From NCBI GenBank assembly GCA_944389475.1, contig CALXMM010000003.1, positions 64,847 to 128,846 on the forward strand: a stretch of DNA of 64,000 nucleotides. Reading direction: 5' to 3'. This document shows, piece by piece, positions 37,674 to 57,497 of the stretch (position 1 is its first letter; every line of letters starts with the position of its first letter). The translations under genes and the position numbers were made by a program. The notes below the pieces were generated by a model. The model worked only from the letters and a program-made list of their open reading frames with translations. It was not told where the DNA came from and did no database searches. The stretch comes from an uncultured Clostridia bacterium. GTDB lineage: Bacteria; Bacillota; Clostridia; TANB77; CAG-508.

Positions 37674-37915
37674 CTATATTCCCCCAAGAAATAACTAATA
37701 TTTCCTTTTATATTTCATTTATTGTATCAAGTTTATTTCTTATATTAAATAGCTCTTTTTTCTAGTTTTCTTGGGCTGTTTTAGGTATATTTACGCAAGC
37801 TATTGGTGCACGCTTTAGGTTTTAATATTACATTTTTATGTTTTTTTCGATATAGTTTGTCAAATAAGAATATAAAGCTCTCTTTTATTGTATTTCCGTA
37901 AGGTTTTCGGTTTTT
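37674..37915 (-). promoter_or_regulatory. Conserved leader/promoter region of giant gene 1 with an RBS-sequestering helix
   Basis: Homologous to 55094-55355. The arms at 37767-37775 and 37683-37691 are perfectly complementary (CCCAAGAAA / TTTCTTGGG) and cover the SD. A conserved AAAAATGTAATATTAAA block may be an extended -10 element. Confidence 0.5.
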
Positions 37916-38111: not shown

Positions 38112-39419
38112 CTATAAACTCAATTTATCTAAACAAAAAACACTGTATAAAGGAATACACTTTATATCATTTTCAAATCCAAAATTCTTAGTTGATACTC
38201 TTATTGAATATTTAATATTATATAAACTTTTAAATACATTTAAACTTTTTGACCTTGTATGCGCACTTGATTTTACTTCTATTGGAATAATATTTCCTTC
38301 TTTATCTTGCACAACAAAGTCAACTTCTGCTTTTCCGTTTGATTCCCAATAATATGGTCTTAAACCTGCTTTAACCAAACTACTACATACATAGTTTTCT
38401 GCTAATGCTCCTTTAAAATCATTCAAATTATCATTATCTACAATTATAATATTGGTAGGTATACCAAATTTATTACACAATAACCCAACATCATTCATAT
38501 AAATCTTAAAACTCTCCGGCTCTATAAATGCAGAAAGCGGTAATTTACCTTCTCTTGTTTTAGTGCATTGTATAATAATTCCTGAAGCATTCAACCAATT
38601 AATAGCAGTCTCATATTCATATGCTCTCGCCCCTGATTTTATCAATTTGTATTGAAATTTTCTATTTTCTTTTGCTAATTGTGAAGAAATGCTATTATAT
38701 ACTGCCATTATTTTAGTCGTTTCTGTTGCTGTAGCATATTTTGCCATATCCGCTATATACGAATTATTAATATCCTTTAATATTGATGATACAAAATCCA
38801 TATCCTGTTTTTCTTTATATTCTAATATTGCCCTTGGCATTCCACCAATTGCTAAGTATAAACGATAATAGTTATTTGCTAAACCATGCAAAGAAAATTC
38901 TCTATCACTTTCAAAAGCATCCCTTATTAAATTTGCTAAATCTCTCCTATCCATTGCCCACAAAAACTCTTCAAAATCTAATGGGTATAATGTTAGCATT
39001 TTTACTTTGCCTACCGGGAATGAATATTTATTTCTATTTATTGCTATTCCTAACAAAGAACCCGCTGCTATTACATGATATTTGTAATTACTCTCTGCAA
39101 AATATTTTAAAGATGTTAATGCTCTTTCGCAGGTCTGAATTTCATCAAAGAAAATTAATGTGTCTTCTTCCATTATTGTTATTCCTAATCTTACACTTAA
39201 TTCTTTAATGATTCTGTCCACCTCTAAATCTTGTTCAAAGATTTTAGCAATCTCTCTGTTATCCTCAAAATTTATATATACAACATTTTTATAATTCTCT
39301 TTTCCAAAAGATAGAATTGTATATGTTTTTCCAACTTGTCTTGCTCCATAAATAATTAGTGGCATCTTTTCTTGATTATCTTTCCATTCAAGTAATATTT
39401 TTGACATTTTTCGTTCCAT
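38112..39419 (-). CDS. AAA_14 ATPase with a DUF4143 C-terminal domain
   Basis: Walker A YGARQVGKT and Walker B LIFFDEIQ, with a C-terminal ...GKAEVDFVV.....IPIEVKS (DUF4143-like) region. Start set at the MERKMSK ATG (39419), 8 nt after AGGAGG. Confidence 0.75.
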   Translation of the reverse strand: MERKMSKILLEWKDNQEKMPLIIYGARQVGKTYTILSFGKENYKNVVYINFEDNREIAKIFEQDLEVDRIIKELSVRLGITIMEEDTLIFFDEIQTCERALTSLKYFAESNYKYHVIAAGSLLGIAINRNKYSFPVGKVKMLTLYPLDFEEFLWAMDRRDLANLIRDAFESDREFSLHGLANNYYRLYLAIGGMPRAILEYKEKQDMDFVSSILKDINNSYIADMAKYATATETTKIMAVYNSISSQLAKENRKFQYKLIKSGARAYEYETAINWLNASGIIIQCTKTREGKLPLSAFIEPESFKIYMNDVGLLCNKFGIPTNIIIVDNDNLNDFKGALAENYVCSSLVKAGLRPYYWESNGKAEVDFVVQDKEGNIIPIEVKSSAHTRSKSLNVFKSLYNIKYSIRVSTKNFGFENDIKCIPLYSVFCLDKLSL

Positions 39420-39614
39420 TTTATGTGCCTCCTTTACATTTATTGTAACATGCATTTATTGATATGTCAATTTGAAGATGTTATTACTAAATAATTTAGT
39501 CTTGCTAACATTAATTTAAATGAAAAAGAAACATCTATTATTAAGTGTTTGCTTTAATTTTAAAACTTGCACTTTAATAGATGTTTCTAATTTCATTATG
39601 CTCATATTAATTTA

Positions 39615-40475
39615 TTATATTTCCTTAGTTAATTTTTCAATTTCTTCTTCGTTTAGTTCAGTTATTTTTAATATCACATCTTTAGGCATTTTTTCTTTTA
39701 GCATTTTCTTAGCTATCTCTATTTTTTCTTGTTTTCGTCCTTCTTTTTGACCTTCTTTTTGTCCTTGTTTTCGTCCAATTTTTTCGCCATCTTCTCTTGC
39801 TCCTTCCATATTCGTTACATAATCTTTTAATGCTTTTTCCCTTAAAAAAGCTTTTCTCCTTACTGCTTCATCTCCTGTTAGATATTCTAGTTCATCTGAT
39901 GCTTCTTTTACTTTTTTATTCTCTTCCATTGCCTTTTTTACCCCCTTTTCATCTTGACCATCTATGAATTTTAACCATTGCCATAATTTCTTGTTCTCTT
40001 TTTCACTCCCTTCCTTTTTAAATTTTGGTATTTGTATAAAATGCATTTCTAAATCATTTGTTAGTAATTTATTTTTATATTCTCTTCTTATCGTTGCTAC
40101 TTCATGATATGGTCCTTCTTTAAAGATATCAAAATTTAATATATTTATTGTTACTACTCTATTATTTTTCTTATAATTTCCTCCACTTTTTAGTCCATTA
40201 TAATATAATCCTGACCAATAGAATAATGACCTTTCTGTCATATTATATTGGTCTTGCATTTGCATTTCTATATCTATTGTTATTCCATTATCTATTACTG
40301 CTTCTATATCTAATATTCCTTCTTTATTATCTATTAAATCTCTTTCTAAATCTACTTCTGCTTTTATCTCTATTTGATGAATATTTATATTTAATATTCC
40401 ACTTAATAAATCTATTAGCATTCCTTTATTCTTATTGTTTCCAAAAACTTTTTTAAAAATAAAGTCATTTGTCAT
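39615..40475 (-). CDS. Rpn-family recombination-promoting nuclease / putative transposase (PD-(D/E)XK, TIGR01784-like)
   Basis: N-terminal TNDFIFKKVFG, the GILDIEAV...IDIEMQ core (D...ExQ variant of the PD-(D/E)XK motif) and ...VVTINILNF, followed by a K/E/Q-rich C-terminal helical tail. Confidence 0.75.
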   Translation of the reverse strand: MTNDFIFKKVFGNNKNKGMLIDLLSGILNINIHQIEIKAEVDLERDLIDNKEGILDIEAVIDNGITIDIEMQMQDQYNMTERSLFYWSGLYYNGLKSGGNYKKNNRVVTINILNFDIFKEGPYHEVATIRREYKNKLLTNDLEMHFIQIPKFKKEGSEKENKKLWQWLKFIDGQDEKGVKKAMEENKKVKEASDELEYLTGDEAVRRKAFLREKALKDYVTNMEGAREDGEKIGRKQGQKEGQKEGRKQEKIEIAKKMLKEKMPKDVILKITELNEEEIEKLTKEI

Positions 40476-41095: not shown

Positions 41096-44000
41096 TTATT
41101 TCTTGTTATTTTTCTTTTGTCTCTTTGTTAGAACTACTGCATATCTTAATGTTACACTTTCTAGTCCTACTAATGCTACTAAAGCTATTAATAATCCTAC
41201 TGGGAATTCACCAGTTTCTACACTTATTGATACTGTTGCATTATCCGTATTATCTTTATCATTGCTATCTTTGAATCCTGGTACGTTATCTGTTTCTGTT
41301 AATGCTACTTCATTAACCTTGTTACCCATATTATTTCCAGATGTCTTCCAGTTTAATAATACTGTGTATTCTTTAGTTTCTCCAGCTCCTATTTCTGGTA
41401 TTACCTTTCTAATAGTTGTTTCGCCGCTTTCTGCAGCATTTACGCTTGATACTTCCCATGTTCCATCATTATTTGCTAAAGTCATTCCTTCTGGTAATTT
41501 ATCTTCTACTATTGCCCTTCCGGAAATTTCTCCAGTGTTCATAACTTTTATCTTGTACTCTACTTGTACACTTGTGTTTTCTGTGCTCTTTCTATAGATA
41601 TCTACTTTTTCTAGTTTTCCATTTGTTGCATTTCTTCTTTCACCATTTACTATTATTGCAGAAATATCTTTTTCTACTCCAATATTAAATGGTTTTGGTT
41701 CGTAGTAATAGTAAACATCTTTTGTGTTGTTAACTATATCTTTTCCATTTTCATCCTTTGTGATTTCTACTTTCATCTTACCATTTGGTTCTTTTGGACT
41801 TTCTACTAATTTATAGTATTCAAAGTCTTTTGGTGTTGTTGTATAGTCATCATCTTTGTATCCTTCGATAATTACTTGTGATGATTGTAGTTCTCCTGTT
41901 TCTGGATTGTTTTCTTCTAGTTCTCTTCCTGTTGTTCTATCTACATAGTGTACTATTACTTTTGCTGGTTGATTATAATAGTAATTTACTACTATTTTAT
42001 CTTTTGTCATTGTTCCTTGAGCATTTGTTGGTAACATATTGTTTCCATCTTTATCTTCTGTTACTAATTCGTAACTTAAGAATTCTTTTGCACTTGTAGT
42101 ATATTCATCTCCAACATGTCCATTGTAAATTGTTGGTTCTGCCAACTCTTCTCCTGTTACTATGTCTATGTGGTGTTCTTCTACTACTGCTTTTCTTACA
42201 TAATAATATGTTACTACTGTCTTATTATTCGTTATATTACCATTTTCATCTGTTTCTACTGTTAGAGTTCCATCTTTGTTTGATGGTACTTCTACTAAGT
42301 CAAAGTCTTCGAATGTCTTTTGCTCTGTTGTGTATGGGTCACCTTCATGTTTTGTATCATCAACTATTTGGTCTGTTAAAGGTTCTCCTGTTTCTTTATC
42401 TATGTAGTTTACTTCTAATACTGCTTTCTTTATGTAATAGTAATTTACTGTTACAAGTTCTTCTCCCATTGTTCCACTTGCGTTGTTTGGAAGTTTTGTT
42501 GTTACTAAATCATATCCTACAAAGTTCTTGCTTGGTATGTTGTAACTATCTCCTACTTGAACTTCATGTTCTTCTGTATATAAGATTTTCCCTGTTTTGT
42601 CATCTATGTGGTTTTCTAGTAATCCAGTATATACTGGCTCATACCAATATATTAAGGTTTGTTCTTCTTTTGTCATGTTTATTGTTGTTGGATTTGGACT
42701 TTGTATTAATTTATATCCTGTGAATTCTTTTGAGTTTGTTACAAATTCATCTCCAACTAATCCTTCTTCTGTTCTTGGTGTCTCTAAATCTTTTACTATT
42801 TCTCCTGTCTCTGGATTTCCTTCCACATATCTAACTGTTGCTTTTGTGTTTTGTAGATAGTAATATGTTACATTTGTGTCTGCTACTGTCATTGTTCCTT
42901 GTGTGTTTCCACTATTAGAAACTAATGTGTATGTTTTACCATCTTTTGTTATTGTATCTTTCTTATGTTCTGTATCTGTGTTGTATTGGTCATCTACGTG
43001 TCCATCAATTTGCTCATTATCTGATAAAACTAGGTTATTGCCATCATTATCATCTGAGTCCTTTTCTAGGTAATGTATTATTACTTTTGCTGGTTTTAAT
43101 CTGTAATAATATATTACTTCTTGTGGTTTTTCTTCATCATATTTTTCTATTGTTCCATCTGGTTTCTCTGGTAATTTTTCTTGGACTAACTCATATTTTT
43201 CATTTACATTGTCTGCTGGCTCTGTCTCATATGGGTCTCCTTCTTTTCCTTCGATTATCTCATCTTGAACCTCGTTTCCTTCTTTGTCTGGGACTCTTGT
43301 TTCTGTTGTACTTCCATCTGGATTCATTACATAATGATGTACTGTTACTTTTCCGTATTTATTTGTGTTTGTAACAGTTTTATCTGTTACTACACTATCG
43401 TAATATTTTAAGTCTCCATCTGTCTTTTGTTCTTCTGTTAATGTATATACAATTTCTTGTTTATTAGCATCATATTTTGGTAAGTCTGTAAATATATCAT
43501 TCCATTTATTTGGATTTTCGCTATCTTGTGTTGTAGTTGTGTTTGCTGTTCCTGGTTTTGCTACATCCAATGTTCTTACACTTCCATCACTACCTGTTAA
43601 CTTAAATACTACTCTTGTTGGTCTTTGTCCTAGTTTGTTATCACTATCATCCCATATTTTGCTTACTGGTATATTTACTATAAATCCTGTTGTTGTTGGC
43701 CAGTTTGCTGTTACTTCTTCACTTGTTCTATCCGGTGTTTCATATTCTATATGAGCTTTTATATTATTTTTAATACTCAATGTGTCTTGGCTAATTCCTG
43801 TATATACAACTTTTATTTGTTTATTTATTGTTACTTCTCTACCTTCTGTCATTTGTATATTTTCTACTGGTTGTTCCCATGTTATTGTCTTGCTTGCTGC
43901 ATCATATGTTCCACCATCTAAGTCTTCTAATATATTTGTTTTTGTTGTATCTATTTCATATGGTAATTGATCTACTAATACAATCTTTGCATTTCCTTCA

Positions 44001-47000
44001 TAGTCTGTTATATGTGCTGTGTAATTTATGTTATATGTTATCTCATCATCTAGACTATCTGTTGTTGCTGTTCCTGTCTTAGATATACTTTGTTCTTCTT
44101 TTGGCTCTACATATGTGTGCTCTGGCTCTTCTGGAACTTTTTCATCTTCTGGATTTTCTCCTGGTTCATCACCTGGATTTCCTGGGTTATCAGTATCTTT
44201 ATTTATATATGCTGTATTCTTTATTGTTGTTCCATCTGCCAATTTATTTACTCTTACTTGGAACTCAACTACTTTTTCTTCATTTATTCCTAATGTTACA
44301 CTTATTCCATTTTCTAAATCTTCAGCTGTCTTTGTTAAATCTTGTAATTCTCCTATTCTTACTGAGTCTTCTACAAATGTTGTTCCTTCTGGCACTTTAT
44401 CTTTTACAAGTACTGTTCCAGCTCTTGTTCCATCATTTCTTACTCTTATTCTGTATGTTATTGTGTCTCCTTCTGTTACTTTTGTTCCACTTACTGGGTC
44501 TGATTCTTTATGTGCTGTAATATTTGGTTTCGTTACTGTTGTTGTTACTTCATTTGTTGGTTCATTATCCAATGTTGCTTTATTCTTTAATTCTTTACTA
44601 TATGTTCCTTCTGGTAATGTATTTACTATTCCCGCAAATACTACATCAACTGTACTATATTCTGGAACTTCTACTTGTATTCCATTCTTTAAATTTTGCT
44701 CTGTATATACTGTTCCTGTACTTCCAACTTTTATTTGTGTACTACTATCAAATGTTAGACCTTCTGGTAATGTATCTGCTAATGTTACTGTTTTAGCTAA
44801 GTTTCCATCATTCTTAATTCTTACTGTATATGTTACTTTCTCTCCTTCTTGTGCTTCTGTCTTATCAACTATTTTCTCTGCACTTATTATTGATTTATAT
44901 ATTGTGCTTTCAAAGTCATCATTTGTTTCTTCACTTGTTGTTTCTGGAGTAAGTAACTTAATACTTCCTCTTACATTGTTTGTTATCTTTTCTTGGTTCA
45001 TATCTAAACCAGTATAGAATACTTTAATGTTCTTAGTTATATTAACTGTTCCTTTGACATTATAACTATCTAAGTCTGATACGTTTTCTGTCCATGTAAT
45101 TGTATGCTTTGCTGGGTCATAGTTTCCGCCATCTAGGTCGTTGGCTTTGCTTGTATCTATTGCATATGGCAATGTATCTACGATTGTTACTTCTGCATTA
45201 CCTATATAGTCTGTTACATTTGCATTATATGTTATAGTGTAATTTACTTCTTGGTCAGGTGCTGTTATTCTCTCTGTACCAGTCTTTTCTATTGTGTTTG
45301 TTACTGTTGGTGTTTTTAGTTTGTAATAGTATGTTACTACTATTTGTTCCAATGTCATATTACCATTTGCATTTGCTGGATTTTCATTTACAACTTCATA
45401 GTTATTTGCTATCTCTGTTGATGGATTTGTTGTATATGGTGAATTTACTTGTCCATCTATTAATTCATCTTCTACTACTCCACCATTTTTATTTGGTACC
45501 TTGGTTTCTGTTGTTGTTCCATCTAGGTTCATAATATAGTGGTGTACTAATACATTTGTAGGTTTTAGTTTGTAATAGTAAATTACTTCTATTGTTCCAT
45601 TTTGTATCGTTCCACTTGTTTCTCCTACTGTTGAGACATACTCATAATTTTCGCTTACATTATCTGCTTGTTTTGTTGCATAGATATCTCCTACATCTCC
45701 TGTTTGTACTACATCTTCGACTACTCCACCATCTTTATTAGGTACTTTTGTTTCTGTTGTTGTTCCATCTGAATTCATAATATAGTGGTGAGTTATTACC
45801 GTTCCTTTAATTTTAGTATTTGTTATATCTAATGTTACTTGGTCTTGTCCTTTTGTTACACTAAACTCTGTCGTATTATTTTCTGGTATTTGGTAACCCT
45901 CTGGTACTTCTGTTTCTGTTGCAATATAGTCTCCTGATTCTAAATTAGTTGCTATTTGTCCGTTAGAATCTGTTGTGTAAGTTCCAATTATTGTTGTTGG
46001 AGTATCCTTATCTGCAATTGTAAATTTAACTCCTGCAAGTGGTGTTTTTCCATCTTCTGCAAATTTGTTTATTACAAGTGGTCTTACAACTTTTTTATAA
46101 TAATAGGTTACAACTACTTCTTCTCCACTATATGTTCCTTCTGCATTTGAAGGTGTTTCTACTAATTCGTAATCATCACTTAATTTGTCTTCCTCAATTG
46201 CATTTGTTATATATGGTTCATTTTCTTTTCCACTATCGATTACATCTTCTGCTACTCCACCATCTTTTAATGGTACTTTCTCTGTTGTTCCTTCTATATA
46301 ATGATGTACTGTTAGTGGTATATCCTTTGTTTCGTAATAGTAGATTACTTCTATTGTCTTACCAGATTCAAAATCTCCTGTTGCATTTTCTGGTAGTACA
46401 TAGTTTCCTTCTCCATCTTTTTCTAGTTCATATTCGCTTAAGTCTAATTTTGGATTTGTTGTATATTTTTCTCCATTCTTTCCTTCTACTAATTCATCTT
46501 CTGCTACTTTTGTTGTTGTATAGTTTCCTTCATTATCTTTTAAATAATGATGTACTATTACTTTTGCAAGTTTATTATTTTCTATTGTAAACTCATGATT
46601 TCCATCTGCTCTAAATTCTACTACAACTGGTTCACTATTTAACTCATATCCTTCTGGTGCTGTAACCTCTGTTATTTGGTATTTTCCAAATGGTATTTGT
46701 GTTATAGCTTGTCCTTCACTATTTGTAGTTACTTCTGTATGATATAGTTCTGAATCATTTAAAGTAACTTTTACACTATTTACAGTAAATTTATCATCTC
46801 CTGTTGATGTACTAGCATTTTTATAATATCCAAGATGTAAATAATACATTTGTCCACCTTGTAATACTGTTGTATAGTCTTGTGCATCTTGCTCTCCAGA
46901 TATATAGACAAATCTTCCTGTACTACTGCTATATGATGGTGCAGTTGTATTACTTGTTACTGTTGCATATCCATAATCAGAACTACTTTGACTTGATACA

Positions 47001-50000
47001 TCTGCATTTACTGTTAAGTTATATTTTCCAGTATAATTTGTTAAATCTATTGGGATATATGAATTTGCTACTGTGCTATCTTGTCCTTGGTTATTTGATT
47101 CATATCCTCCTGAACTATTATCTACAAAGTTATATGTAGAACTATTTGCTTCATAGACTTTTATACTATTGATAACTATTTGGTCTTCTCCTGAATCTAT
47201 ACTAACATCTTTATGATAACCTAAATGTAAGTAATATGTTTTACCTCCTTCTAATACCTTTGATGTATAATCTTTCGCAGTTGTTACACTACCATATGTT
47301 CCTGATATATACATAAATCTTCCTGTACTACTACTATATGTTGGTGCTGTTGTACTTTGATTTATTGTTGCATATCCCGAATCAGATCCTTCACTTGATA
47401 CACTTGCATTTACCACTACTACATACTCTCCAGATTTACCACTTAAGTTTATTGGAATATATGAGTTTGCTGTACTACTTTGAATTCCAGCACTTCCACC
47501 ATTTGCAAGTTGATATGTTTTACTATTTGTTGGAACATATGCTCCATCTTCATTTTGTACGAAATAGTATGTTCCATTATTTGTTAAATCACCTAATACT
47601 CCTGTTACTTCTCCTTTTTCTGTATCTGTTTCTACATACTCTTGTCCATTTGCTACTATATCTCCTATAATTTCATCATTATCTGGGTCTGTCCTTTCCT
47701 CTAATTGGTCTAACTTAAATGTTGCTCCTGCTAATTTCTTACTATTATCTTCACTATCTACTTTATTTATAACTATTTTATTATCTTTTAAAGCATATGT
47801 TACTACTACATGCTTATCTTCTGTCATGTTTGTAAATTGTGGCATTTTATATCTTCCATCTTCATTTTCTTCAAATGGCCATTCTTTTCCATTTACTGTT
47901 ATTCCTATTATTTCATAGCCACTATCTGGTGTCATTACTATTTCTTTAGTACTACTATCTCCATATTTAACTTTATCATATGAAGTCATATCTTCTCCAG
48001 AAATACTTCCACCTTTTACTCCATCTATTTCATTTACATCTGTTGTTATATTAAATTCTTTTCTACTATTTTCTACTGTTAGCTCTTGAACCTCTGGAAC
48101 TCCTACTTGATTTGCAACCTCAAGTATCATTCCATCAGAAGTTGTCTCAAAAATTGATGTAGAACCACTATTATTTGTTAATGTATAATCATCAACATTT
48201 ATAGTAGAACTATTAAAATATCCTCCTGCAATGACACCTCCATCACTTGTTACTACTACTGATTGGATATCATCATTACTACTTCCTCCAAAGCTTTTTG
48301 CCCATTCCACTTCGCCTTGACTACTATATTTTATTATTAAACCATCATCACTACCTTTACTTATTAATATTTCATTTCCTACTTGGATTGAGCTACTAAA
48401 ATATCCTCCTACTAGGATTCCTCCATCACTGGTTGACGCTACTGATTCTATATAATCAGAACCACTTCCTCCAAATGATTTTGCCCATTCTACTTTTCCC
48501 TCGCTATTGTATTTTATTATTAGGCAATCATAAGAATATGTAAAACCATTATTTGTTAATGTTTCATTTCCTACTTTAATTGTACTACTATAGAAATATC
48601 CTCCTACTAGGATTCCTCCATCACTGGTTGACGCTACTGATTCTATATAATCAGAACCACTTCCTCCAAATGATTTTGCCCATTCTACTTCTCCTTCGCT
48701 ACTATATTTTATTATTAGACCATCTGAACTACCATTATTTGTTAATTGATAATCTCCTACTTGGATTATATTCTCAGAATATCCTCCTACTAGGATTCCT
48801 CCATCACGCGTTGATGCTACTGAATTGATATAATCATTATAAATTCCTCCAAATGAATCTGCCCATTCTACTTCGCCTGTGCTATTATATTTTATTATTA
48901 ATCCATCATTATCGCCTTTATTTGTTAATTGATAATTTCCTACTTGAATTGTATCACTAGAGAAATATCCTCCTGCGATGGCACCCCCATCACTTGTTGC
49001 TGCTATTGATTGGATTCTATCATCATTACTTCCTCCAAATGATTTTGCCCATTCTACTTCACCTGAGCTATTGTATTTTATTACTAAGCCATCATAATAT
49101 GATGTCGAACCATTATTCTTTAATGTTATTTGACCATTTATGCCTTCTAGTTGGATTGTACTACTTCTAAAATATCCTCCTACTAGGATTCCTCCATCAC
49201 TGGTTGACGCTACTGATTCTATATAATCAGAACCACTTCCTCCAAAGCTTTTTGCCCATTCTACTTGTTTATCCTTATTATATTTTATAATCATTGCATC
49301 ATAATATGATGTCGAACCATTATTTCTTAATGTTATTTGACCATCTATGCCTTCTAGCTGGATTGTACTACTTCTAAAATATCCTCCTGCTATATAGCCT
49401 CCATCGCTTGTTGCTGCTATTGATTGGATTTCATCATCATTACTTCCACCAAATGAACTTGCATTAGTAACAACGGGATTAACAATTTCTTGTTTTTCAA
49501 ATTTAATAATTAATCCATCACTTCCATTAGGAATTAATGTTTTATCTCCAACTTGAATAGTACTATTGAAATATCCTCCTACTATAACATCACCATTCGT
49601 TAATTCAGATATACAATTATAAATTCCATAACTTGATGTTGTTGCATATTCTAATTCACCCATGCTATTTAATTTTAATAAATGTCTGCCTCTAGTAACT
49701 ATTTTGTTATTTAATTTAAATTCAGAGAAAATTCCATTTACTAATATTCCTCCATCATTTGTTGAGATTACTGTGTCGATTTGATTATTACTACTTCCAC
49801 CAAATGATTTTGCCCAATCCACTTCTCCTTCTGAATTATATTTTACTATTAGCGCAGTATCTATACCATTATTTGTTAATTGATAATCTCCAATTTGGAT
49901 AGAAGAACTATTTGTGAAATATCCTCCTATCAGTATTCCTCCATCATTTGTTAATACACTAGAATTAATAGTAATATTGTTATTATCTAGTATAGTTTTT

Positions 50001-53000
50001 GCCAAAAGTACCATACCTTGTGAATTGTATTTTATTAGATAATTACCTGCAGTTAATGTTTGGTCTCCTACTTGCATATCACTCTTAATATTTCCTGTAA
50101 CAATGATACCTCCATCACTCGTTGGTGCTACTGATAAGATATAATCATCATCACTTCCTCCAAATGAATCTGCCCATTCTACTTCGCCTGAGCTATTGTA
50201 TTTTATTATTAGGCAATCAGAATCTCCATTACTTGTTAATGTTTCATTTTCTACTTGGATTGTACTACTTCCGAAACGTCCTCCTACTAGGATTCCTCTA
50301 TCACTGGTTGGTGCTACTGATAAGATATAATCATCATCACTTCCTCCAAATGAATCTGCCCATTCTACTTTTCCCTCGCTATTGTATTTTATTATTAGGC
50401 AATCATAAGAATATGTAAAACCATTATTATTTGTTAATGTTTCATTTCCTACTTGGATTGTACTACTTTGGAAATATCCTCCTGCTATATACCCTCCATC
50501 ACTGGTTGACGCTACTGATAAGATATAATCATTATCACTTCCTCCAAATGAATCTGCCCATTCTATGTCTCCTTCACTATTGTATTTTATTATTAGGCAA
50601 TCAGCATCATTGCTACTATGATTTGTTAATGTTTCATTTCCTACTTGGATTGTAGTACTTTCGAAATATCCTCCTGCTATATAACCTCCATCACTCGTTT
50701 CTGCTACTGATTCTATATAATCATAATCACTTCCTCCAATTGAATCTGCCCATGTTGCTACCATTCCTTCTTTTGGCTCTCTAGAGGAACCTATACCAAA
50801 ATAGTATACACTATCAGATATATCGTATTTTTCTGGTGTTTCTACTTCTACAGCTTTATATAATCCTTCTGTTAAGTCTGCTGTTAATTCTCCGTTTTGG
50901 TCTGTAGAAACTGTGTAGTATTCTCTTCCATTTATTGTTTCTTTTGTTCCAACGATTTCTCCTTTACTATTTGTTGCAGGTACCTCTCCATTGTCTACAT
51001 TGTATATTGCAAATTTAACTCCTGCTAATGTTGCTCCTGTTTCTGCATCTTTCTTAATTAATTTAAATGATGGGCTATCTTCTATTGTTAATTTTACTGT
51101 ATTTCCTTCTACTGTGTATTTCTCTTCTATTCCGTCCATGTTTAATAAGCTTAAAGTATTATCTTTATTTTCTACTTTAAACCTTATATCTTTTACCTTT
51201 GCATATCCTTCTGGTGCTAATACTTCCTTTAATGTATATGTTGCTTCTTCATCTTTTCCTTCTATGTATTGGTATAAATTATCTATTGTTACTGTTCCAT
51301 TTCCGTCTGTTATATATTCTCCTATTTCTTCATCATTTTTATATAATTTAAATTTTGCTCCTGATAAATATGTTACTTCTGTATCTGCTAATGCTGTTTC
51401 TGCTTTTGCTTTTAGTTCATCATCACTTACTGTTGCTTCTGTTGTTTTCTTTACTTTTATTATTTGTAAGCTATATGTTGGTATCTTCTCATCCTCTATG
51501 TTTAATGTAATTGTTGGTATACTATCTTCTTCTGTTGTACTTTGGTCTTTTATTGTTCCACTTGTTGTTTGTATAATATAATTTCCATCATTGTTTACTA
51601 TTTTAAATGTTATAGGGTCTGCTAAATAATACCCTTCTGCTTTTGTTTCAGTTAGAGTATATTCTTGGTTAATAGAAAGCCCACTTATTGTAGCCTCTCC
51701 ATTTATATTTGTTGTTACTGTTCTTCCATTTTCAGGTAGGTTATATCCTGTTAATTTATATCTTACATTTTGTATAAGCGTATCTGTGCCTTGTTCTTTC
51801 TTAACAATTTTTATACTTGCTTTTACTTCATCTTCTACTTTTACAGTTACTCTGTAATCTTCTCCTTCTTCCTTAACTACAGCCATATCTTCTTTTGTTG
51901 TTCCACTTGTTTTCTCTATTGTAAGATTTCCTTCATCATCTACATGACCAATAAACCTAATAACATCACTATTTAATTCATAGTTATCAGGTGTTTTCAT
52001 TTCTGCCAATATATATGCTTTTTCCGCATATAGTCCATTTATAGTTAACATTCCTTGTGCATTTGTTACAGCTGTTCTAATTTCTCCTGTTTCCAAATCC
52101 ATAACTCCATATGTTGCACTAGGAATTACTTTATCTTTTCCTGTTTGGTATTTTGTTAATTCTAAATTATATTTCTCTGCAATTCTAAATCCTAATCTGT
52201 TAGGCTCTGTTTGTGTTCTATACTTTCCTTGGTCTGTATCTAAGCTAAAGTATACTCCATGATGACTGAAAGATACTTTATTAAACTCTAATCCATTTGG
52301 TATCTTTACTGTGTAATTAAATACATATTCTTTTCCTGTTGGCATTATGTAAGCACCAAGGTCTATTAAATATGTTTTAACATTATCCCAATCTGTTACT
52401 TCTTCTGCTGTTTTCCATCCATTTTGTTCATCTGTTAGGTCTCTATCTGGATTCTCATTTTCAGAATAATACACTGTTGCATATTGTTGCAATTCTTCAG
52501 GTATTTGTATTCCTGCTTCTGTCATCTTGGTTGTAAATGTTGAACCTAAGTCTCCTCCACTTATTACATATGTATTTCCTTCAAATGGTATCTTTCCTAA
52601 TATTTGTATATCACTAATTGTACTTCCATAATTATTTCTTACTTGTACTCCTATTGTTGCTTCTTTCTCTTCTCCTTCTTGGTCTACTACTCCATAAACT
52701 GGCTTTATATCTGCAACTTCTGGTGATACTACTTGACTTCCTTTATCATCATAATTACTTCCTATTTGGTTTGTTAATAATGAGTTTGGTGATACCATGC
52801 TTAAACTTACTGTATCATGGTTTACTTGTTCATCTATATTTAAGTTGTCGTTTACATCATAAACATCGCTTGCTTTGTAATAATAGTCACATGTTTCTTC
52901 ATTAGATGCATATAACTCTATATCTCTACTCATTGTTGCTACTCTTGGGTCTGGAGTTATATCCACATCTATTGTTATGCTATATGTTTGTGGTGTATCA

Positions 53001-55093
53001 TTATTATTCTTTGTGTTTATCTTTATTAGTTTTGCTCCATCTTGCTCTATAATTTCATAGCTAACTAATGAAACTGCACTGTTATTTATTTGTACATCAT
53101 TTATTTGGGCATCTATTATTTCTTCTGGTAGTTTTACTACAAAACTTCCATCCACCCATCCTACTTGGTTGCTTGAACTGTCATTTCTTGCTGTTATTGT
53201 TATCTTTTCATTTTTTTCTGTTATTTGTGTTGATATTGTATTATTGCTTATTCCTATATCTGCTATTGAATATGGTGCTTCATAATTTGCTTGGTGTGTG
53301 TCTGTATTAATATATCTTCCTCCAAGATATCCTACTAATGTAGATTTTATATATTGTAATTTGTCAAACTCCTCCCTGGTATAGTTTGTTGTTATATATT
53401 CATCATCTAATTCTTTAATGTTATATACTGTTAAATAACTATTTGCGTTTGTATCACTTGTCTCTATTCTTATATGTTTTACTGGTAGTTCATATTTATA
53501 TGAATTACTTGCTGTATACTTGCTCCAATCAGATTTTGTAAATGTTACTAATAAATCTCCTGTTTCTTCATCATATACTTTTATCCATCCATCATCTTTT
53601 AAGATGCTATCTGCCCCTGAAAATGCTATTCCAATATTTGTTGTTACATCTTCCATACTTTCTTTATTTGAATCTGTCTTTATGAAATTGTCTGTAACTT
53701 GTGATTTATCATTTTCAGTTTCTTTCATTACTAATCCTGTAGAAGTTCCATCAGTTCCTGTATATGCCTCCCATTTTACTTGGTATATATCGTCTTCTCC
53801 CATATCGCTTAATCCATTGTATATTTTTAATGGTTTTTCTTTTGAAATTATATATCTATAACTTGGATAAAATACATATTTTCCTACTGTTACATCGAAT
53901 CTTGCTACTGAGCCTTGCATTTTTCTATAGTTTGCTACTATTGTTGCACTTGCTACATTTGATTTATATGGGTTTGTAAATTCTGAACTTGTGTTGTTAT
54001 ATCCTTCGTAATATGTGCTTACTGGTATTCTTAATGTTACTGTGTCTTCTCCTAAACTTTGATATGCTTCTATTGGATATACTACTTTTACACTGTATGA
54101 ATTATCTCTAGATACTCCACTTGTTACTGTTCCATCTTCTCCTACTTGTGTTTCTCTATCTATTGTAAGCACTTTTGTCTCTTCATTATAATTTGCTGTA
54201 GCATTACTTCCTGTATATTCCACACTTATTGGGTCATATCCATTTAATTGTGGGATTGTTGCTTCTACATGGTTTTTCTTTAATATTAATTCATCTTCTG
54301 TTTCCTCTGTTATTATAGAGAAGTTCAATGTTATTGTTCCGTTTTCTTCATCTAGTCTGTCATCTAAATCATAATATGTGTTATAGCTATTGTTTGTATA
54401 TATACTTGCTCTTGCTGTTCCGTACCAATCTATATTAAAATTAACTGTTTTTGTTATAGGTGTTTCTACTCCATCTTCTCCAACATATGTTCCTGTTAAT
54501 GTTACTGTATTTAGCTTGCTATAGTTATTTATATTATTTCCTATGGCTGCATTTTCACGTGATGAATAAGAATAGTCTCCACTTCTAACTATTCCTGTTA
54601 ATAACTTTTGCGTTCCATTCTTTAAATCATTAAATTCTATTACCTTTGTGTTATTTCCTACATAACTATCTTTTAACTCATTATCTTTTGGTAATGCTGT
54701 TTGGAAATAGAAATTATTACCATCACTCATTGTTATCTTGGCATCTTTTAGATATCCTGCTGTTTGAACATTTAATTCCATGTACAAGGTATCCTCTTTT
54801 CCTATCTCTCTACTTGTTCCTCTTATGCTCTCTGCATTTCCATCTCCATCTAAGTCACGTAAAAAGAAGGCATCAAATTTAACGTGGCCATCTGTTCCAT
54901 CCACGTTTTCTTCTCCTTCCTGTACTTGGTCATATTCCATTGCTTTTGCTAGTTCTGGATTTGCCTTTGCAAAATTCTCTTTTTGCTTGTTAACTTTAAC
55001 AACAACCATAGTTATTATTAATGCTACTATTATCGCTATTACTCCGACTAGCAATCCTATCTTTCTCTTCATTCCCTTTTGCATATTTTCCAT
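41096..55093 (-). CDS. Giant (4665 aa) multidomain cell-surface protein, paralog of 20562-37673
   Basis: Unbroken 14.0-kb ORF, collinear with gene 1. By eye the head, C-terminal MucBP run and sorting signal are about 70-85% identical at aa level. It lacks the 11x Cna_B block but carries a unique duplicated insert of about 320 aa. The C-terminus has SVETGEF, a hydrophobic segment and a KRQKKNNKK tail. Confidence 0.9.
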   Translation of the reverse strand: MENMQKGMKRKIGLLVGVIAIIVALIITMVVVKVNKQKENFAKANPELAKAMEYDQVQEGEENVDGTDGHVKFDAFFLRDLDGDGNAESIRGTSREIGKEDTLYMELNVQTAGYLKDAKITMSDGNNFYFQTALPKDNELKDSYVGNNTKVIEFNDLKNGTQKLLTGIVRSGDYSYSSRENAAIGNNINNYSKLNTVTLTGTYVGEDGVETPITKTVNFNIDWYGTARASIYTNNSYNTYYDLDDRLDEENGTITLNFSIITEETEDELILKKNHVEATIPQLNGYDPISVEYTGSNATANYNEETKVLTIDRETQVGEDGTVTSGVSRDNSYSVKVVYPIEAYQSLGEDTVTLRIPVSTYYEGYNNTSSEFTNPYKSNVASATIVANYRKMQGSVARFDVTVGKYVFYPSYRYIISKEKPLKIYNGLSDMGEDDIYQVKWEAYTGTDGTSTGLVMKETENDKSQVTDNFIKTDSNKESMEDVTTNIGIAFSGADSILKDDGWIKVYDEETGDLLVTFTKSDWSKYTASNSYKYELPVKHIRIETSDTNANSYLTVYNIKELDDEYITTNYTREEFDKLQYIKSTLVGYLGGRYINTDTHQANYEAPYSIADIGISNNTISTQITEKNEKITITARNDSSSNQVGWVDGSFVVKLPEEIIDAQINDVQINNSAVSLVSYEIIEQDGAKLIKINTKNNNDTPQTYSITIDVDITPDPRVATMSRDIELYASNEETCDYYYKASDVYDVNDNLNIDEQVNHDTVSLSMVSPNSLLTNQIGSNYDDKGSQVVSPEVADIKPVYGVVDQEGEEKEATIGVQVRNNYGSTISDIQILGKIPFEGNTYVISGGDLGSTFTTKMTEAGIQIPEELQQYATVYYSENENPDRDLTDEQNGWKTAEEVTDWDNVKTYLIDLGAYIMPTGKEYVFNYTVKIPNGLEFNKVSFSHHGVYFSLDTDQGKYRTQTEPNRLGFRIAEKYNLELTKYQTGKDKVIPSATYGVMDLETGEIRTAVTNAQGMLTINGLYAEKAYILAEMKTPDNYELNSDVIRFIGHVDDEGNLTIEKTSGTTKEDMAVVKEEGEDYRVTVKVEDEVKASIKIVKKEQGTDTLIQNVRYKLTGYNLPENGRTVTTNINGEATISGLSINQEYTLTETKAEGYYLADPITFKIVNNDGNYIIQTTSGTIKDQSTTEEDSIPTITLNIEDEKIPTYSLQIIKVKKTTEATVSDDELKAKAETALADTEVTYLSGAKFKLYKNDEEIGEYITDGNGTVTIDNLYQYIEGKDEEATYTLKEVLAPEGYAKVKDIRFKVENKDNTLSLLNMDGIEEKYTVEGNTVKLTIEDSPSFKLIKKDAETGATLAGVKFAIYNVDNGEVPATNSKGEIVGTKETINGREYYTVSTDQNGELTADLTEGLYKAVEVETPEKYDISDSVYYFGIGSSREPKEGMVATWADSIGGSDYDYIESVAETSDGGYIAGGYFESTTIQVGNETLTNHSSNDADCLIIKYNSEGDIEWADSFGGSDNDYILSVASTSDGGYIAGGYFQSSTIQVGNETLTNNNGFTYSYDCLIIKYNSEGKVEWADSFGGSDDDYILSVAPTSDRGILVGGRFGSSTIQVENETLTSNGDSDCLIIKYNSSGEVEWADSFGGSDDDYILSVAPTSDGGIIVTGNIKSDMQVGDQTLTAGNYLIKYNSQGMVLLAKTILDNNNITINSSVLTNDGGILIGGYFTNSSSIQIGDYQLTNNGIDTALIVKYNSEGEVDWAKSFGGSSNNQIDTVISTNDGGILVNGIFSEFKLNNKIVTRGRHLLKLNSMGELEYATTSSYGIYNCISELTNGDVIVGGYFNSTIQVGDKTLIPNGSDGLIIKFEKQEIVNPVVTNASSFGGSNDDEIQSIAATSDGGYIAGGYFRSSTIQLEGIDGQITLRNNGSTSYYDAMIIKYNKDKQVEWAKSFGGSGSDYIESVASTSDGGILVGGYFRSSTIQLEGINGQITLKNNGSTSYYDGLVIKYNSSGEVEWAKSFGGSNDDRIQSIAATSDGGAIAGGYFSSDTIQVGNYQLTNKGDNDGLIIKYNSTGEVEWADSFGGIYNDYINSVASTRDGGILVGGYSENIIQVGDYQLTNNGSSDGLIIKYSSEGEVEWAKSFGGSGSDYIESVASTSDGGILVGGYFYSSTIKVGNETLTNNGFTYSYDCLIIKYNSEGKVEWAKSFGGSGSDYIESVASTSDGGILVGGYFSSSIQVGNEILISKGSDDGLIIKYSSQGEVEWAKSFGGSSNDDIQSVVVTSDGGVIAGGYFNSSTINVDDYTLTNNSGSTSIFETTSDGMILEVANQVGVPEVQELTVENSRKEFNITTDVNEIDGVKGGSISGEDMTSYDKVKYGDSSTKEIVMTPDSGYEIIGITVNGKEWPFEENEDGRYKMPQFTNMTEDKHVVVTYALKDNKIVINKVDSEDNSKKLAGATFKLDQLEERTDPDNDEIIGDIVANGQEYVETDTEKGEVTGVLGDLTNNGTYYFVQNEDGAYVPTNSKTYQLANGGSAGIQSSTANSYIPINLSGKSGEYVVVVNASVSSEGSDSGYATINQSTTAPTYSSSTGRFMYISGTYGSVTTAKDYTSKVLEGGKTYYLHLGYHKDVSIDSGEDQIVINSIKVYEANSSTYNFVDNSSGGYESNNQGQDSTVANSYIPIDLTNYTGKYNLTVNADVSSQSSSDYGYATVTSNTTAPSYSSSTGRFVYISGEQDAQDYTTVLQGGQMYYLHLGYYKNASTSTGDDKFTVNSVKVTLNDSELYHTEVTTNSEGQAITQIPFGKYQITEVTAPEGYELNSEPVVVEFRADGNHEFTIENNKLAKVIVHHYLKDNEGNYTTTKVAEDELVEGKNGEKYTTNPKLDLSEYELEKDGEGNYVLPENATGDFESGKTIEVIYYYETKDIPLTVHHYIEGTTEKVPLKDGGVAEDVIDSGKENEPYITNAIEEDKLSDDYELVETPSNAEGTYSGEEVVVTYYYKKVVRPLVINKFAEDGKTPLAGVKFTIADKDTPTTIIGTYTTDSNGQIATNLESGDYIATETEVPEGYQIPENNTTEFSVTKGQDQVTLDITNTKIKGTVITHHYIMNSDGTTTETKVPNKDGGVVEDVVQTGDVGDIYATKQADNVSENYEYVSTVGETSGTIQNGTIEVIYYYKLKPTNVLVHHYIMNLDGTTTETKVPNKNGGVVEDELIDGQVNSPYTTNPSTEIANNYEVVNENPANANGNMTLEQIVVTYYYKLKTPTVTNTIEKTGTERITAPDQEVNYTITYNANVTDYIGNAEVTIVDTLPYAIDTSKANDLDGGNYDPAKHTITWTENVSDLDSYNVKGTVNITKNIKVFYTGLDMNQEKITNNVRGSIKLLTPETTSEETNDDFESTIYKSIISAEKIVDKTEAQEGEKVTYTVRIKNDGNLAKTVTLADTLPEGLTFDSSTQIKVGSTGTVYTEQNLKNGIQVEVPEYSTVDVVFAGIVNTLPEGTYSKELKNKATLDNEPTNEVTTTVTKPNITAHKESDPVSGTKVTEGDTITYRIRVRNDGTRAGTVLVKDKVPEGTTFVEDSVRIGELQDLTKTAEDLENGISVTLGINEEKVVEFQVRVNKLADGTTIKNTAYINKDTDNPGNPGDEPGENPEDEKVPEEPEHTYVEPKEEQSISKTGTATTDSLDDEITYNINYTAHITDYEGNAKIVLVDQLPYEIDTTKTNILEDLDGGTYDAASKTITWEQPVENIQMTEGREVTINKQIKVVYTGISQDTLSIKNNIKAHIEYETPDRTSEEVTANWPTTTGFIVNIPVSKIWDDSDNKLGQRPTRVVFKLTGSDGSVRTLDVAKPGTANTTTTQDSENPNKWNDIFTDLPKYDANKQEIVYTLTEEQKTDGDLKYYDSVVTDKTVTNTNKYGKVTVHHYVMNPDGSTTETRVPDKEGNEVQDEIIEGKEGDPYETEPADNVNEKYELVQEKLPEKPDGTIEKYDEEKPQEVIYYYRLKPAKVIIHYLEKDSDDNDGNNLVLSDNEQIDGHVDDQYNTDTEHKKDTITKDGKTYTLVSNSGNTQGTMTVADTNVTYYYLQNTKATVRYVEGNPETGEIVKDLETPRTEEGLVGDEFVTNSKEFTGYKLIQSPNPTTINMTKEEQTLIYWYEPVYTGLLENHIDDKTGKILYTEEHEVQVGDSYNIPSKNFVGYDLVTTKLPNNASGTMGEELVTVNYYYIKKAVLEVNYIDKETGEPLTDQIVDDTKHEGDPYTTEQKTFEDFDLVEVPSNKDGTLTVETDENGNITNNKTVVTYYYVRKAVVEEHHIDIVTGEELAEPTIYNGHVGDEYTTSAKEFLSYELVTEDKDGNNMLPTNAQGTMTKDKIVVNYYYNQPAKVIVHYVDRTTGRELEENNPETGELQSSQVIIEGYKDDDYTTTPKDFEYYKLVESPKEPNGKMKVEITKDENGKDIVNNTKDVYYYYEPKPFNIGVEKDISAIIVNGERRNATNGKLEKVDIYRKSTENTSVQVEYKIKVMNTGEISGRAIVEDKLPEGMTLANNDGTWEVSSVNAAESGETTIRKVIPEIGAGETKEYTVLLNWKTSGNNMGNKVNEVALTETDNVPGFKDSNDKDNTDNATVSISVETGEFPVGLLIALVALVGLESVTLRYAVVLTKRQKKNNKK
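48125..50757 (-). repeat. Two tandem seven-blade SBBP-type propeller repeat sets (gene 2), with near-identical DNA repeats
   Basis: 7 + 7 blades, split at KFEKQEIVNPVVTNASSFGG (about 49490). Identical stretches of at least 70 bp start at 48403, 48597 and 49172. A repeat of about 90 bp occurs at about 50133 and 50320. Confidence 0.75.
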
Positions 55094-55355
55094 AATGAAA
55101 TCCCTCCAACAAAAAAGTCATTTTTCGCTATATTATCTGTTTTATTTTATCAACTTTATTTCTTATATTAAATAGCACTTTTTGCCATGTGTTGGAGGGT
55201 GTTCCGCGCCTATTTACGCAAGCTCCTAATGTGTGGTTTAAAGTTTAATATTACATTTTTGTGTATTTTTTGATACATTTTGACATAAGGGATTTGGAAA
55301 AATCCTTTTTTCTCTTTTTATATCTTCTATTTCTTCTTTCCGTAGTTTTTCTTAA
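55094..55355 (-). promoter_or_regulatory. Conserved leader/promoter region of giant gene 2 with an RBS-sequestering helix
   Basis: The arms at 55190-55199 and 55102-55111 are perfectly complementary (CCCTCCAACA / TGTTGGAGGG) and cover the SD GGAGG. Sequence blocks are shared with 37674-37915. Confidence 0.5.
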
Positions 55356-55383
55356 TGGTTTAAATTTTTATAGTTCAAAAATA

Positions 55384-55572
55384 GTGGAAAATGAAATAAC
55401 TGATTCTAAGAAAAAACAGGAATACTGGGAAACAGGTATAGGCTTAAATAAGGTTGATAATTTAGAACCTTCTAAATATTTATTAGACTTATCCCAGAAA
55501 AACATTAATGGGGAATTAAAGTATAACGAAGTAGAAAATTTATTACAGGAAAAAAGGACCTTTCCAAATTGA
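55384..55572 (+). pseudogene. Possible remnant of a VbhA-like antitoxin / Fic N-terminal module
   Basis: QEYWETGIGLNKVDNLEPSKYLLDLSQKNINGELKYNEVENLL fits the ..EGL.PS........GEI...E pattern of VbhA-type domains. There is no convincing start or RBS. The first 40 codons of the tracked ORF overlap the gene 2 leader and look non-coding. Confidence 0.3.
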
Positions 55573-55679
55573 TTGAACCAAAATTGTAAAACTTCTTATC
55601 TAACAATTTTGTTTCAGTACAATCCCGGAATAGGTCCTTTTTCTATATAAATCTTTTATCCAGTTACAATTTATTTCGA

Positions 55680-57497
55680 CTAGGCTTGTTTCTCATCATC
55701 TGCGAAAATTCTATCGAATTCATCACCATCGATTTTTTCTTTCTCTAGCAATACTTTTGCTACTGCATGCAATTTATCTACATGTTCACTTAAGATATCC
55801 GTAGCTTTTTTGTATCCTTCATCAACTAATTTCTTAACTTCTTCATCTATTATTGCTGCAGTTTCTTCAGAATATTCCTTAGCATGAGCTAAGTCTCTTC
55901 CTAAGAATACTTCATCTTGGTCACTACCAAATGTAATTGTTCCTAATCTATCGCTCATACCATATTTTGTAACCATTGCTCTTGCAATTGATGTTGCTCT
56001 TTCTATATCATTGCTTGCACCTGTAGAGATATCATTTAAAATCAATTTTTCTGCAACTCTTCCTCCTAATAGAGAAACGATATTTTCTTCCATTTCTGTT
56101 TTTGACCTAAATGATTTATCTTCTGTTGGTCTATACATTGTATAACCTCCAGCCATTCCTCTTGGTACAATTGATATTTGATGAACTTTATCCTGTGTTG
56201 GTAAATATCTACTTACAACTGCATGACCAGCTTCGTGGTAAGCAACTAATTTGTTTTCTTTTTCGCTTCTTACTCTTGTTTTCTTTTCTGGTCCCATTGT
56301 AACTTTTACCATTGCATCTTCAATTTCTTTCATTCCAATACAATCTAGATTTCTTCTAGCGGCAAGTAATGCAGCTTCGTTTAAAACATTCTCTAGGTCT
56401 GCTCCTGCAAAACCTGATGTATTTCTTGCAATTGTTTTTAAGTCTACATCTTCACCTAGTTTTTTCTTTCTAGCATGAACTTCTAGTATTTGCTCTCTAG
56501 CTTTTACATCTGGAGCAGATACAACTATTTGTCTGTCAAATCTACCAGGTCTTAATAATGCTTTATCTAGTACATCCGGTCTGTTTGTTGCAGCTAGCAC
56601 TATAACACCTTCATTTGTTCCAAATCCATCCATTTCAACTAAAAGTTGATTTAATGTTTGCTCTCTTTCATCATGTCCTCCTCCAAGGCCTGCACCTCTT
56701 TGGCGACCTACTGCATCAATTTCATCTATAAATATTATAGATGGAGAATTCTTTTTAGCTTGTTCGAACAAGTCTCTTACTCTTGATGCACCAACACCAA
56801 CAAACATTTCTACGAATTCTGAACCACTTATACTAAAGAAAGGAACTCCTGCTTCTCCAGCAACTGCTTTAGCAAGTAATGTTTTACCTGTACCAGGTTG
56901 ACCTACAAGTAGTACACCCTTTGGTATTCTTGCTCCCATATCTGTAAATTTCTTTGGAGTTTTTAAGAATTCTACAATTTCTTCTAGTTCTTCTTTTTCT
57001 TCATCAACACCAGCAACATCATTAAATGTAACTTTTGTTTTTTCAGCTCCATTTGTCATTCTTGCTCTACTCTTACCAAATGACATTGTTTTATTTCCGC
57101 CTTGGCTTCCTGGATTAATTAATAGTAAACCAAATAGTAAAACAATTACTATTATTCCAAATGGTATTATTAAGTAAAGACCTTTCATGAATACTGACTC
57201 TGGTTTTTCTGTTAATGTATAATTATTTGTTTTTAAAATTTCTTGTGCATATGTCATGAAACTATTAATGTCTGGAATATTAACTTCTTTTGGTACAGAA
57301 TCTCCTTCTAGTTCAACTAAGGCTTTTTCTCCTCCAGATTGAATTTCTATACTTGTTACTGTTCCATTTTCCATATCTGTTAATAATTCTGAATATGCAA
57401 GTTTATTGCTTGAATTATCCATTATTGACGAAATTAATACGATGAATATAATTAAAAATATTAACCATACCGCCAATGATTTTATACCATTTTTCAA
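55680..57497 (-). CDS. ftsH: ATP-dependent zinc metalloprotease FtsH
   Basis: Walker A GQPGTGKT, the SRH region and the HEAGHA zinc motif. TTG start after GGGAGG. Confidence 0.92.

Follow-up and report, generated by a model that had tools for sequence, protein, structure and literature searches.

Promoter anatomy and SD complementarity in the control region of a giant adhesin gene from an uncultured gut Clostridia bacterium

The locus and its paralogous control regions

The window analysed here is a stretch of 64,000 nt from an uncultured Clostridia bacterium, in a 1.6 Mb assembly consisting of 32 contigs, with a G+C content of 27%. It carries two giant genes on the minus strand (Table 1), and the product of the second has a membrane segment at its N-terminus. 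We studied the 262 nt lying directly 5' of giant gene 2 (55094-55355, minus strand). Further upstream, about 325 nt of non-coding DNA are followed by ftsH, tilS and dnaB, on the same strand. The interval between the two giant genes (38112-40475) is occupied by an AAA_14/DUF4143 ATPase gene and a PDDEXK_2 (Rpn-type) nuclease gene. With lengths of 4600-5700 aa, the giant adhesins are among the costliest proteins of these small-genome (1.6 Mb) uncultured gut Clostridia, and attachment of these bacteria in the gut of chickens and humans probably depends on them. The DNA sequencing runs carrying the sequence of the region were mostly chicken-gut metagenomes. A search for RNA runs carrying it found none: the one run listed as 'rna', X8, has the behaviour of a DNA metagenome. 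In both X6 and X8, a 65-nt stretch of the spacer between ftsH and the adhesin control region (55555-55621) is swapped for 12 letters, AGGACCATTCCA, and this replacement is a strain-level indel in the spacer.

Table 1. Positions, in the window, of the giant genes and of the features of their control regions
Feature	Position	Strand	Remarks
Giant gene 1	20562-37673	-	ORF, 5703 aa
Leader 1	37674-37915	-	Paralogous control region of giant gene 1; same blocks; own anti-SD pair CCCAAGAAA / TTTCTTGGG
Giant adhesin gene 2	41096-55093	-	ORF, 4665 aa; SpaA x6, MucBP x5, Cna_B, DUF11
ATG of giant adhesin gene 2	55091-55093	-	
Predicted P2 5' UTR	55094-55137	-	About 44 nt; start near 55137 predicted from the -10
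3' arm TGTTGGAGGG	55102-55111	-	Contains the SD GGAGGG (55107->55102), 8 nt before the ATG
3' arm extension CUUUUU	55112-55117	-	Pairs with A-tract AAAAAG at 55178-55183
P2 extended -10	55144-55152	-	TG 55152-55151, one base, TAAAAT 55149->55144
P2 -35 TTTAAT	55167-55172	-	Spaced 17 nt from the -10; relatives have TTTACA or TTGACA
A-tract CAAAAAGTG	55176-55184	-	Directly 5' of the -35; doubles as second segment of the 5' arm
5' arm (anti-SD) CCCTCCAACA	55190-55199	-	C-rich; precedes the P2 -35 by 18-27 nt and is not in the predicted P2 transcript
Block 3, GCTTGCGTAAA	55213-55223	-	Genus variant of the family-wide box CTTCCGTAA
Block 2, GTATCAAAAAATACACAAAAATGTAATATT	55247-55276	-	In a conserved ~11-bp tandem-repeat block, AAAATGTAAT; holds the 'extended -10' of the earlier note
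Extra hairpin GGATTT-GGAA-AAATCC + T6	55290-55311	+	Hairpin 55290-55305, T6 55306-55311
Block 1, CTACGGAAA	55337-55345	-	The TTCCGTAA box in inverted form; block 3 follows ~106 nt downstream in many loci

An earlier note, made from the letters of the window, described this region as a second copy of the leader of giant gene 1, alignable with it over 240-260 nt. A BLAST search of the organism's own genome supports the existence of a second, paralogous copy (74% identity, E=1.3e-25), with a continuous alignable part shorter than that proposed, at about 186 nt (query positions 16-201 of 207). Beyond this part, block 1 forms a further conserved island on the upstream side. The three shared blocks named in the note were all found in both leaders, and comparison of the leaders also confirmed that, within the stretch enclosed by the two complementary arms, the 5' two-thirds are conserved and the 30 nt adjoining the 3' arm have diverged. 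Two more copies of the module are present in the same genome, on contigs C18 (32297-32431, plus strand) and C13 (34949-35068, minus strand), both upstream of other giant ORFs (2301 aa in the case of C13). Weak BLAST matches on contigs C2, C8 and C11 were considered as extra copies and rejected, as they were low-complexity or ordinary promoter matches, such as one downstream of acpP.

A sequence-only covariance model of the module was used to search the family, and identified the module in 55 of 121 genomes and in 32 of the 50 genera sampled. Short matches in other genera from an initial DNA search had been due to chance, and the covariance model search was needed to reveal the family-wide module. 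All 28 of the module loci read outside the organism's own genome precede a large ORF with an N-terminal hydrophobic segment, most of these ORFs running off the locus at 390-500 aa. This promoter module, for which there is no previous description, is widespread across the family.

Predicted promoter P2 and the conserved blocks upstream

The conserved part of the enclosed stretch had been considered in the earlier note to be a recognition element in an RNA loop, rather than a spacer. The comparisons below bear out the first half of this proposal, that it is a recognition element, and speak against the RNA loop. A simple sigma-70 promoter scan picked out the same site, P2, together with its TG, in both leaders. 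We compiled a genus set from 14 of 26 genomes, with the sequences preceding 25 paralogous giant-protein genes, and added four further distinct leaders from metagenome contigs. When anchored on the conserved ATTTA(C/A), all of these sequences read xxA-TTTA(C/A)x-N17-TA(A/C)AAT. With one representative per unrelated spacer sequence (15 types in the genus), a -10-like hexamer was found exactly 17 nt after the -35 in 12 of the 15 spacer types (background rate 5.4%, P=2.6e-13), and at no more than three of the 15 for any other offset from 8 to 29, with no second peak. In the other genera of the family, 25 of 28 loci displayed TTGACA or TTGACT followed, after a spacer of 17 nt, by TAAAAT. P2 therefore combines hexamers close to TTGACA and TATAAT, separated by a distance in the 16-18 nt range, with a spacer of conserved length and free sequence, as expected for a sigma-A promoter. 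The retention of the hexamers and their spacing while the spacer sequence changes completely argues that the block is recognised as DNA, by RNA polymerase, and on this comparative evidence the 'conserved loop block' is identified as the predicted sigma-A-type promoter P2 of giant gene 2.

The neighbouring sequences conform to this picture. The A-tract directly 5' of the -35, for which leader 1 has AAAAAAGAG in the same place, resembles the consensus of a proximal UP element. Loci differ in the number of nucleotides between the -35 and the ATG, from 61 to 337, which fits a promoter followed by a freely evolving 5' UTR, and free evolution of the 5' UTR downstream from the promoter also accounts for the divergence of the 30 nt adjoining the 3' arm. 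A mini-ORF (M-x-K-x-A-I-stop) extending across the -35 was rejected, as it has no SD and its start codon is absent from leader 1 and several relatives. More generally, promoter signatures should be checked before a conserved sequence between complementary arms is called an RNA element. One chicken-gut strain (run X6) carries a 14-nt tandem duplication, TTTATTTTATCAAC (plus strand), immediately after 55140 (55141-55154 of the window). This duplication doubles the extended -10, GTTGATAAAATAAA; the 17-nt distance to the -35 is preserved for one -10, and the leader would gain 14 nt.

Three further conserved blocks are located upstream of P2. In other genera, the family-wide box to which block 3 belongs caps a hairpin with covarying flanks (GCTT/AAGC, AGTT/AACT, AGCC/GGCT and longer ones). 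At loci L088-L116, all from other genera, the box is found at the hairpin apex and is followed, in several genera, by T7-8; the resulting structure has the look of an intrinsic terminator whose loop is conserved, situated between the promoter-like repeat block and the adhesin promoter, and could correspond to a small RNA of about 55-65 nt. Block 2 belongs to a block that, across the family, consists of two or three direct repeats of about 11 bp, AAAATGT(A/C)AT. Many genera have xT(G/T)ACA as the first copy and TG-TAATAT as the last, with 17 nt between them, and it is plausible, from these hexamers, that the repeat block constitutes a second promoter, P1. The block 2 of the window is degenerate, with GTATCA-17-TAATAT in leader 2, a weak sigma-A match (7/12), and ATATCG in leader 1 (6/12). 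The 'extended -10' proposed in the earlier note, AAAAATGTAATATT, was not retained: the simple sigma-70 scan did not flag it in the sense direction in either leader, and it corresponds to one tandem-repeat unit. At many loci of the genus (L045, L058, L065, L066, L053 and the C13 copy), a TGTCGAA sequence, identical to the core of the Spo0A box, precedes the block 2 TAATAT by 17 nt; it is absent from the two leaders of the window, which have TGTATCA and TATATCG instead.

Within the genus, the distances to the -35 are fixed, at -85 to -90 for block 2 and -49 to -52 for block 3, with two loci having one helical turn less. The spacing varies across the family, and an argument for helical phasing based on fixed spacing of blocks 2, 3 and 4 was therefore dropped. 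An RNA helix between blocks 1 and 3 was likewise rejected, because block 3 has become TTGCGTAA in the genus with no compensating change in block 1. The blocks may possibly be protein binding sites or part of a short P1 RNA. The extra hairpin of the earlier note does exist, one base away from the coordinates originally given, and has no counterpart in leader 1 or, indeed, in any relative. Its stability is not above that expected by chance (-8.1 kcal/mol on the plus strand, with 23 of 200 shuffles as good).

Complementarity between the SD and an upstream arm

The perfect 10-bp anti-SD/SD pairing proposed in the earlier note is exact: CCCTCCAACA (55199->55190) pairs with TGTTGGAGGG (55111->55102), covering GGAGGG. 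Pairing resumes past a 6-nt bulge, for 6 bp more, between AAAAAG (55183->55178) and CUUUUU (55117->55112). The energy of the duplex, -19.9 kcal/mol, was not attained by any of 500 dinucleotide shuffles of the 75 nt upstream (-10.3 +/- 2.0 kcal/mol). When the 450 nt upstream were scanned in 30-nt windows, the site of the 5' arm emerged as the best partner of the SD, and the best upstream partner of the SD was also found at the homologous place in L055, L040, L067 and L065. In fold predictions, a long form of the RNA (55205->55094, 112 nt) reached -23.9 kcal/mol (z = -3.8, 0 of 200 shuffles as good) with the SD paired, whereas the SD was unpaired in a short form (55137->55085), which contained a weak A/U hairpin only (-5.7 kcal/mol); this difference is that expected of the masking of read-through transcripts. 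The overall fold of the 181-nt leader was ordinary, with z values of -1.3 for leader 2 and +0.4 for leader 1. No riboswitch-type fold with covarying helices was found inside the leader, in which the anti-SD/SD helix was the only robust one. Searches against Rfam 15 at gathering thresholds returned a single tRNA for the whole window, and, for positions 54900-55700 with E<=10, sub-threshold matches only (no more than 17 bits, except for one miRNA model with 26.8 bits versus a gathering threshold of 72).

The sequences of the arms differ between paralogues, and each fits the flank of its own SD. This was observed for four arm pairs at the homologous place, two from the leaders of the window (CCCTCCAACA/TGTTGGAGGG and CCCAAGAAA/TTTCTTGGG) and two from genome G013 (CCTTCAAAAA/TTTTTGGAGG, with one G.U pair, and TCCCGAAT/ATTCGGGG). 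The register of the helix shifts by 1-2 nt between paralogues, such that real pairs would count as broken in a column-wise scoring of covariation, which was therefore replaced by tests of duplex energy with the locus's own SD versus the SDs of other loci. In 46 non-redundant loci from the genus and the family, own-locus duplexes had an energy of -9.85 kcal/mol, versus -8.43 kcal/mol for cross-locus duplexes, a difference obtained in none of 20,000 permutations, and the giant gene 2 locus ranked first of the 46 on both axes of this cognate/non-cognate test. A strain variant at position 55198 changes a C-G pair to U.G, and pairing is kept. About half of the related loci have no complementarity specific to their own SD, and some of the weaker 'anti-SD' cases are merely a conserved A-tract or C-box beside the -35 meeting a U-run and a G-rich SD. 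By these sequence-based measures, the complementarity of the SD to the upstream site appears to be locus-specific rather than accidental; as had been claimed, it covers the SD, and it is genuine, stands out statistically and is found again in paralogues, where the sequences involved are different.

Given that the 5' arm lies upstream of the P2 -35, it would be absent from the predicted P2 mRNA and could be active only in RNAs starting further upstream. We examined the sources of, and barriers to, such RNAs. A scan of 54800-55900 detected no terminator-like site in the interval separating the region from ftsH; clear terminators are present in L060 and L061, at the syntenic ftsH-adhesin junctions. 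A terminator hairpin of conserved sequence, GTGGAAAACTAT..ATAGTTTTCCAC followed by a T-run, precedes the module at many loci of the genus (L040, L042, L054, L055, L043, L061, L065, L066 and leader 1, at 102875 on the organism's own contig C3). Upstream of gene 2, only the 3' half of this terminator survives, TTTTCCAC (55381-55392, minus strand), which would leave ftsH with no recognisable terminator.

At other loci, different structures occupy the interval of about 50 nt in which the arm is found. On C18 and C13 and at L053, a 14-bp hairpin abuts the -35; it is perfect in the two copies from the organism's own genome (AGAGCATTGTTTCA/TGAAACAATGCTCT) and shows two compensatory pair changes with respect to L053. 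At L088, L089, L098 and L113, in other genera, the interval contains a hairpin followed by T7-8. The common denominator would be a device acting at the RNA level just upstream of P2, which would stop or silence RNA arriving from upstream. At many loci, including leader 1, there is a good terminator further upstream, yet the anti-SD is kept; read-through from the neighbouring gene cannot, therefore, be the whole story at these loci.

Explanations of the complementary arms

These features provide a testable map of the adhesin control region, with a canonical promoter, a putative masking arm outside the predicted main transcript and three conserved upstream boxes. The reading that we favour, with confidence and doubt in about equal measure, is that 55094-55355 is a promoter/operator with a short 5' UTR, in which the mRNA from P2 is open and the 5' arm masks the SD of RNAs initiated upstream, thereby serving as an insulator. 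Transcription from P2 would start near 55137, yielding a leader of about 44 nt, devoid of the 5' arm and with its strong SD exposed. Longer RNAs may begin upstream, by read-through from ftsH or at the weak promoter-like block 2 (55247-55276), and in these RNAs the arm would pair with the SD over 10 + 6 bp, blocking ribosome binding. The expected net effect is that only mRNA initiated at P2 would be translated into the costly 4665-aa protein, and the arm probably silences only stray transcripts from upstream. This read-through model leaves the conserved blocks 1-3 unexplained.

A similar arrangement, 'fold-back inhibition' of read-through transcripts, has reportedly been described for IS10 and IS50 (by Davis, Simons & Kleckner in 1985 and by Schulz & Reznikoff in 1991). 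In both cases, a sequence complementary to the RBS lies upstream of the element's own promoter, such that transcripts from outside are masked and promoter-initiated mRNA is open, as predicted here; the 5' arm, 18-27 nt upstream of the predicted -35, would have the same placement if transcription starts where predicted. Unlike these systems, the region studied here serves a chromosomal giant adhesin gene rather than a transposase, the arm is positioned between conserved upstream boxes and the promoter, and only some members of the gene family possess the device. At the left end of IS200, a terminator against impinging transcription is combined with an SD-sequestering stem-loop (PMC4513863). The likeness here resides in the use of a hairpin terminator upstream of the promoter, together with SD sequestration, to keep expression low, given that relatives of our locus have terminator-like hairpins at the place of the anti-SD; however, the SD-sequestering stem of IS200 is located inside its own 5' UTR (PMC4513863), whereas the 5' arm here is predicted to lie outside the main transcript. 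By analogy, the region would present a variant of the read-through-masking principle of IS10, IS50 and IS200 inside a promoter module. If true, this would extend to ordinary chromosomal genes a trick so far known from insertion sequences.

A second, tentative reading, which we consider unlikely, is that of a two-promoter switch. According to this reading, an upstream promoter in the TGTAAT repeat block, between two TTCCGTAA boxes about 106 bp apart, would be fired deliberately. Its RNA would be ended at the CCGUAA-capped hairpin, as a small RNA, in other genera, or would become an SD-masked mRNA in the organism's own genus; P2 would give the translatable form, and a dedicated factor binding the boxes would choose between the two and set ON and OFF states across all the adhesin paralogues of the family. 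If this reading were true, there would be a family-wide adhesin regulon.

The earlier note had proposed a long structured leader, with an mRNA starting at about 55240, the anti-SD/SD helix acting as a regulated switch and the enclosed block serving as an RNA element for a protein, small RNA or ligand that opens the helix. The helix is indeed strong and specific to its own SD. Initiation upstream may be real, since block 2 in other genera often has the plausible promoter sequence xT(G/T)ACA-17-TAATAT, and the covarying flanks of the hairpins found between block 2 and P2 in relatives show selection at the RNA level there. However, the enclosed block is conserved like a promoter, in its hexamers and spacer length, and not like an RNA motif; no covarying helices lie within the 'loop', the 181-nt fold is not unusual, there is no Rfam match, and the block 2 of the window is a poor sigma-A match that was not flagged in the sense direction. 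Translational riboswitches and RNA thermometers likewise sequester the SD by pairing it with an anti-SD located beyond an intervening stretch. Riboswitches differ in that the region here has no aptamer-like conserved structure and its intervening stretch is a predicted promoter, and the helix here (-20 kcal/mol, 10+6 bp) has a stability and a range too great for an RNA thermometer. On our reading, the region is not a long riboswitch-like leader, and we regard the proposal of a long, switch-operated leader as improbable.

The complementarity may also be functionless, a C-rich patch upstream of the promoter fitting a G-rich SD by chance, with inheritance or re-acquisition by the paralogues. Single relatives are marginal, with 9-34 of 500 shuffles reaching the observed value (L040, L067, L060 and L055), and the loci lacking complementarity, about half of the total, are consistent with this explanation, as are the modest enrichment of the spacer in CCC (4/15, P=0.03) and the presence of a conserved C-box beside the -35 (CTACCA, CTCCCA) even where the SD does not fit. 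It is nevertheless difficult to reconcile with the shuffling result for giant gene 2 (0/500) and the first rank of this locus among the 46, with the permutation test of own-locus against cross-locus duplexes (0/20,000), with the homologous position in four loci, with the fit of flanking non-SD bases in each paralogue despite the differences in sequence, and with the retention of pairing in the 55198 variant (C-G to U.G). We therefore see little likelihood of a functionless match.

An inverton, in which a site-specific recombinase would use the arms as inverted repeats to flip the ~78-bp P2 segment, resulting in ON/OFF phase variation of the adhesin, is very unlikely indeed: perfect 10-bp inverted repeats (55190-55199 and 55102-55111) do flank the promoter of a surface-protein gene, as in the invertons of gut-bacterial surface genes, the paralogues have distinct repeat sequences of their own, and phase-variation signatures, in the form of (CA)n tracts, occur in other members of the gene family, but the right repeat always lies over the SD, a feature for which an inverton has no need, many loci have repeats of only 5-8 bp, and 78 bp is very short for synapsis. 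No inverted allele was present in the assemblies examined. P2 faces the gene at every inspected locus with a recognisable P2, about 60 in all from the genus, the family and metagenome contigs, including covariance-model matches truncated at the 3' end, which were checked for flipped alleles; there was no strand-changing joint in the contigs of three metagenome runs, and a scan of eight flanking ORFs, among them those for FtsH, TilS, DnaB, a protein of the PDDEXK_2 nuclease family and an AAA/DUF4143 protein, yielded no match to a family of site-specific recombinases.

Two minor observations concern other giant surface-protein genes. Tracts of (CA)n, with 8-14 units, were found within the initial ~30 codons (..AVHTHTHTHT..), or else in the leader, of paralogous genes on contigs C18 (~32470-32560, plus strand) and C13 (~34800-34900, minus strand) of the organism's own genome and at L048, L049, L057 and L098, the C13 copy being interrupted (CACCCCCACACACACCCACA). 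These tracts look like slipped-strand phase variation of the giant-protein gene family. L066 (contig C28 of genome G015) has an intact module, and its giant gene carries an in-frame stop in codon 5 (ATGTTTAAAAATTGA). The near-identical paralogue L065 is open, and differs from L066 by one A in an A-run, such that L066 is either a pseudogene or a homopolymer phase switch.
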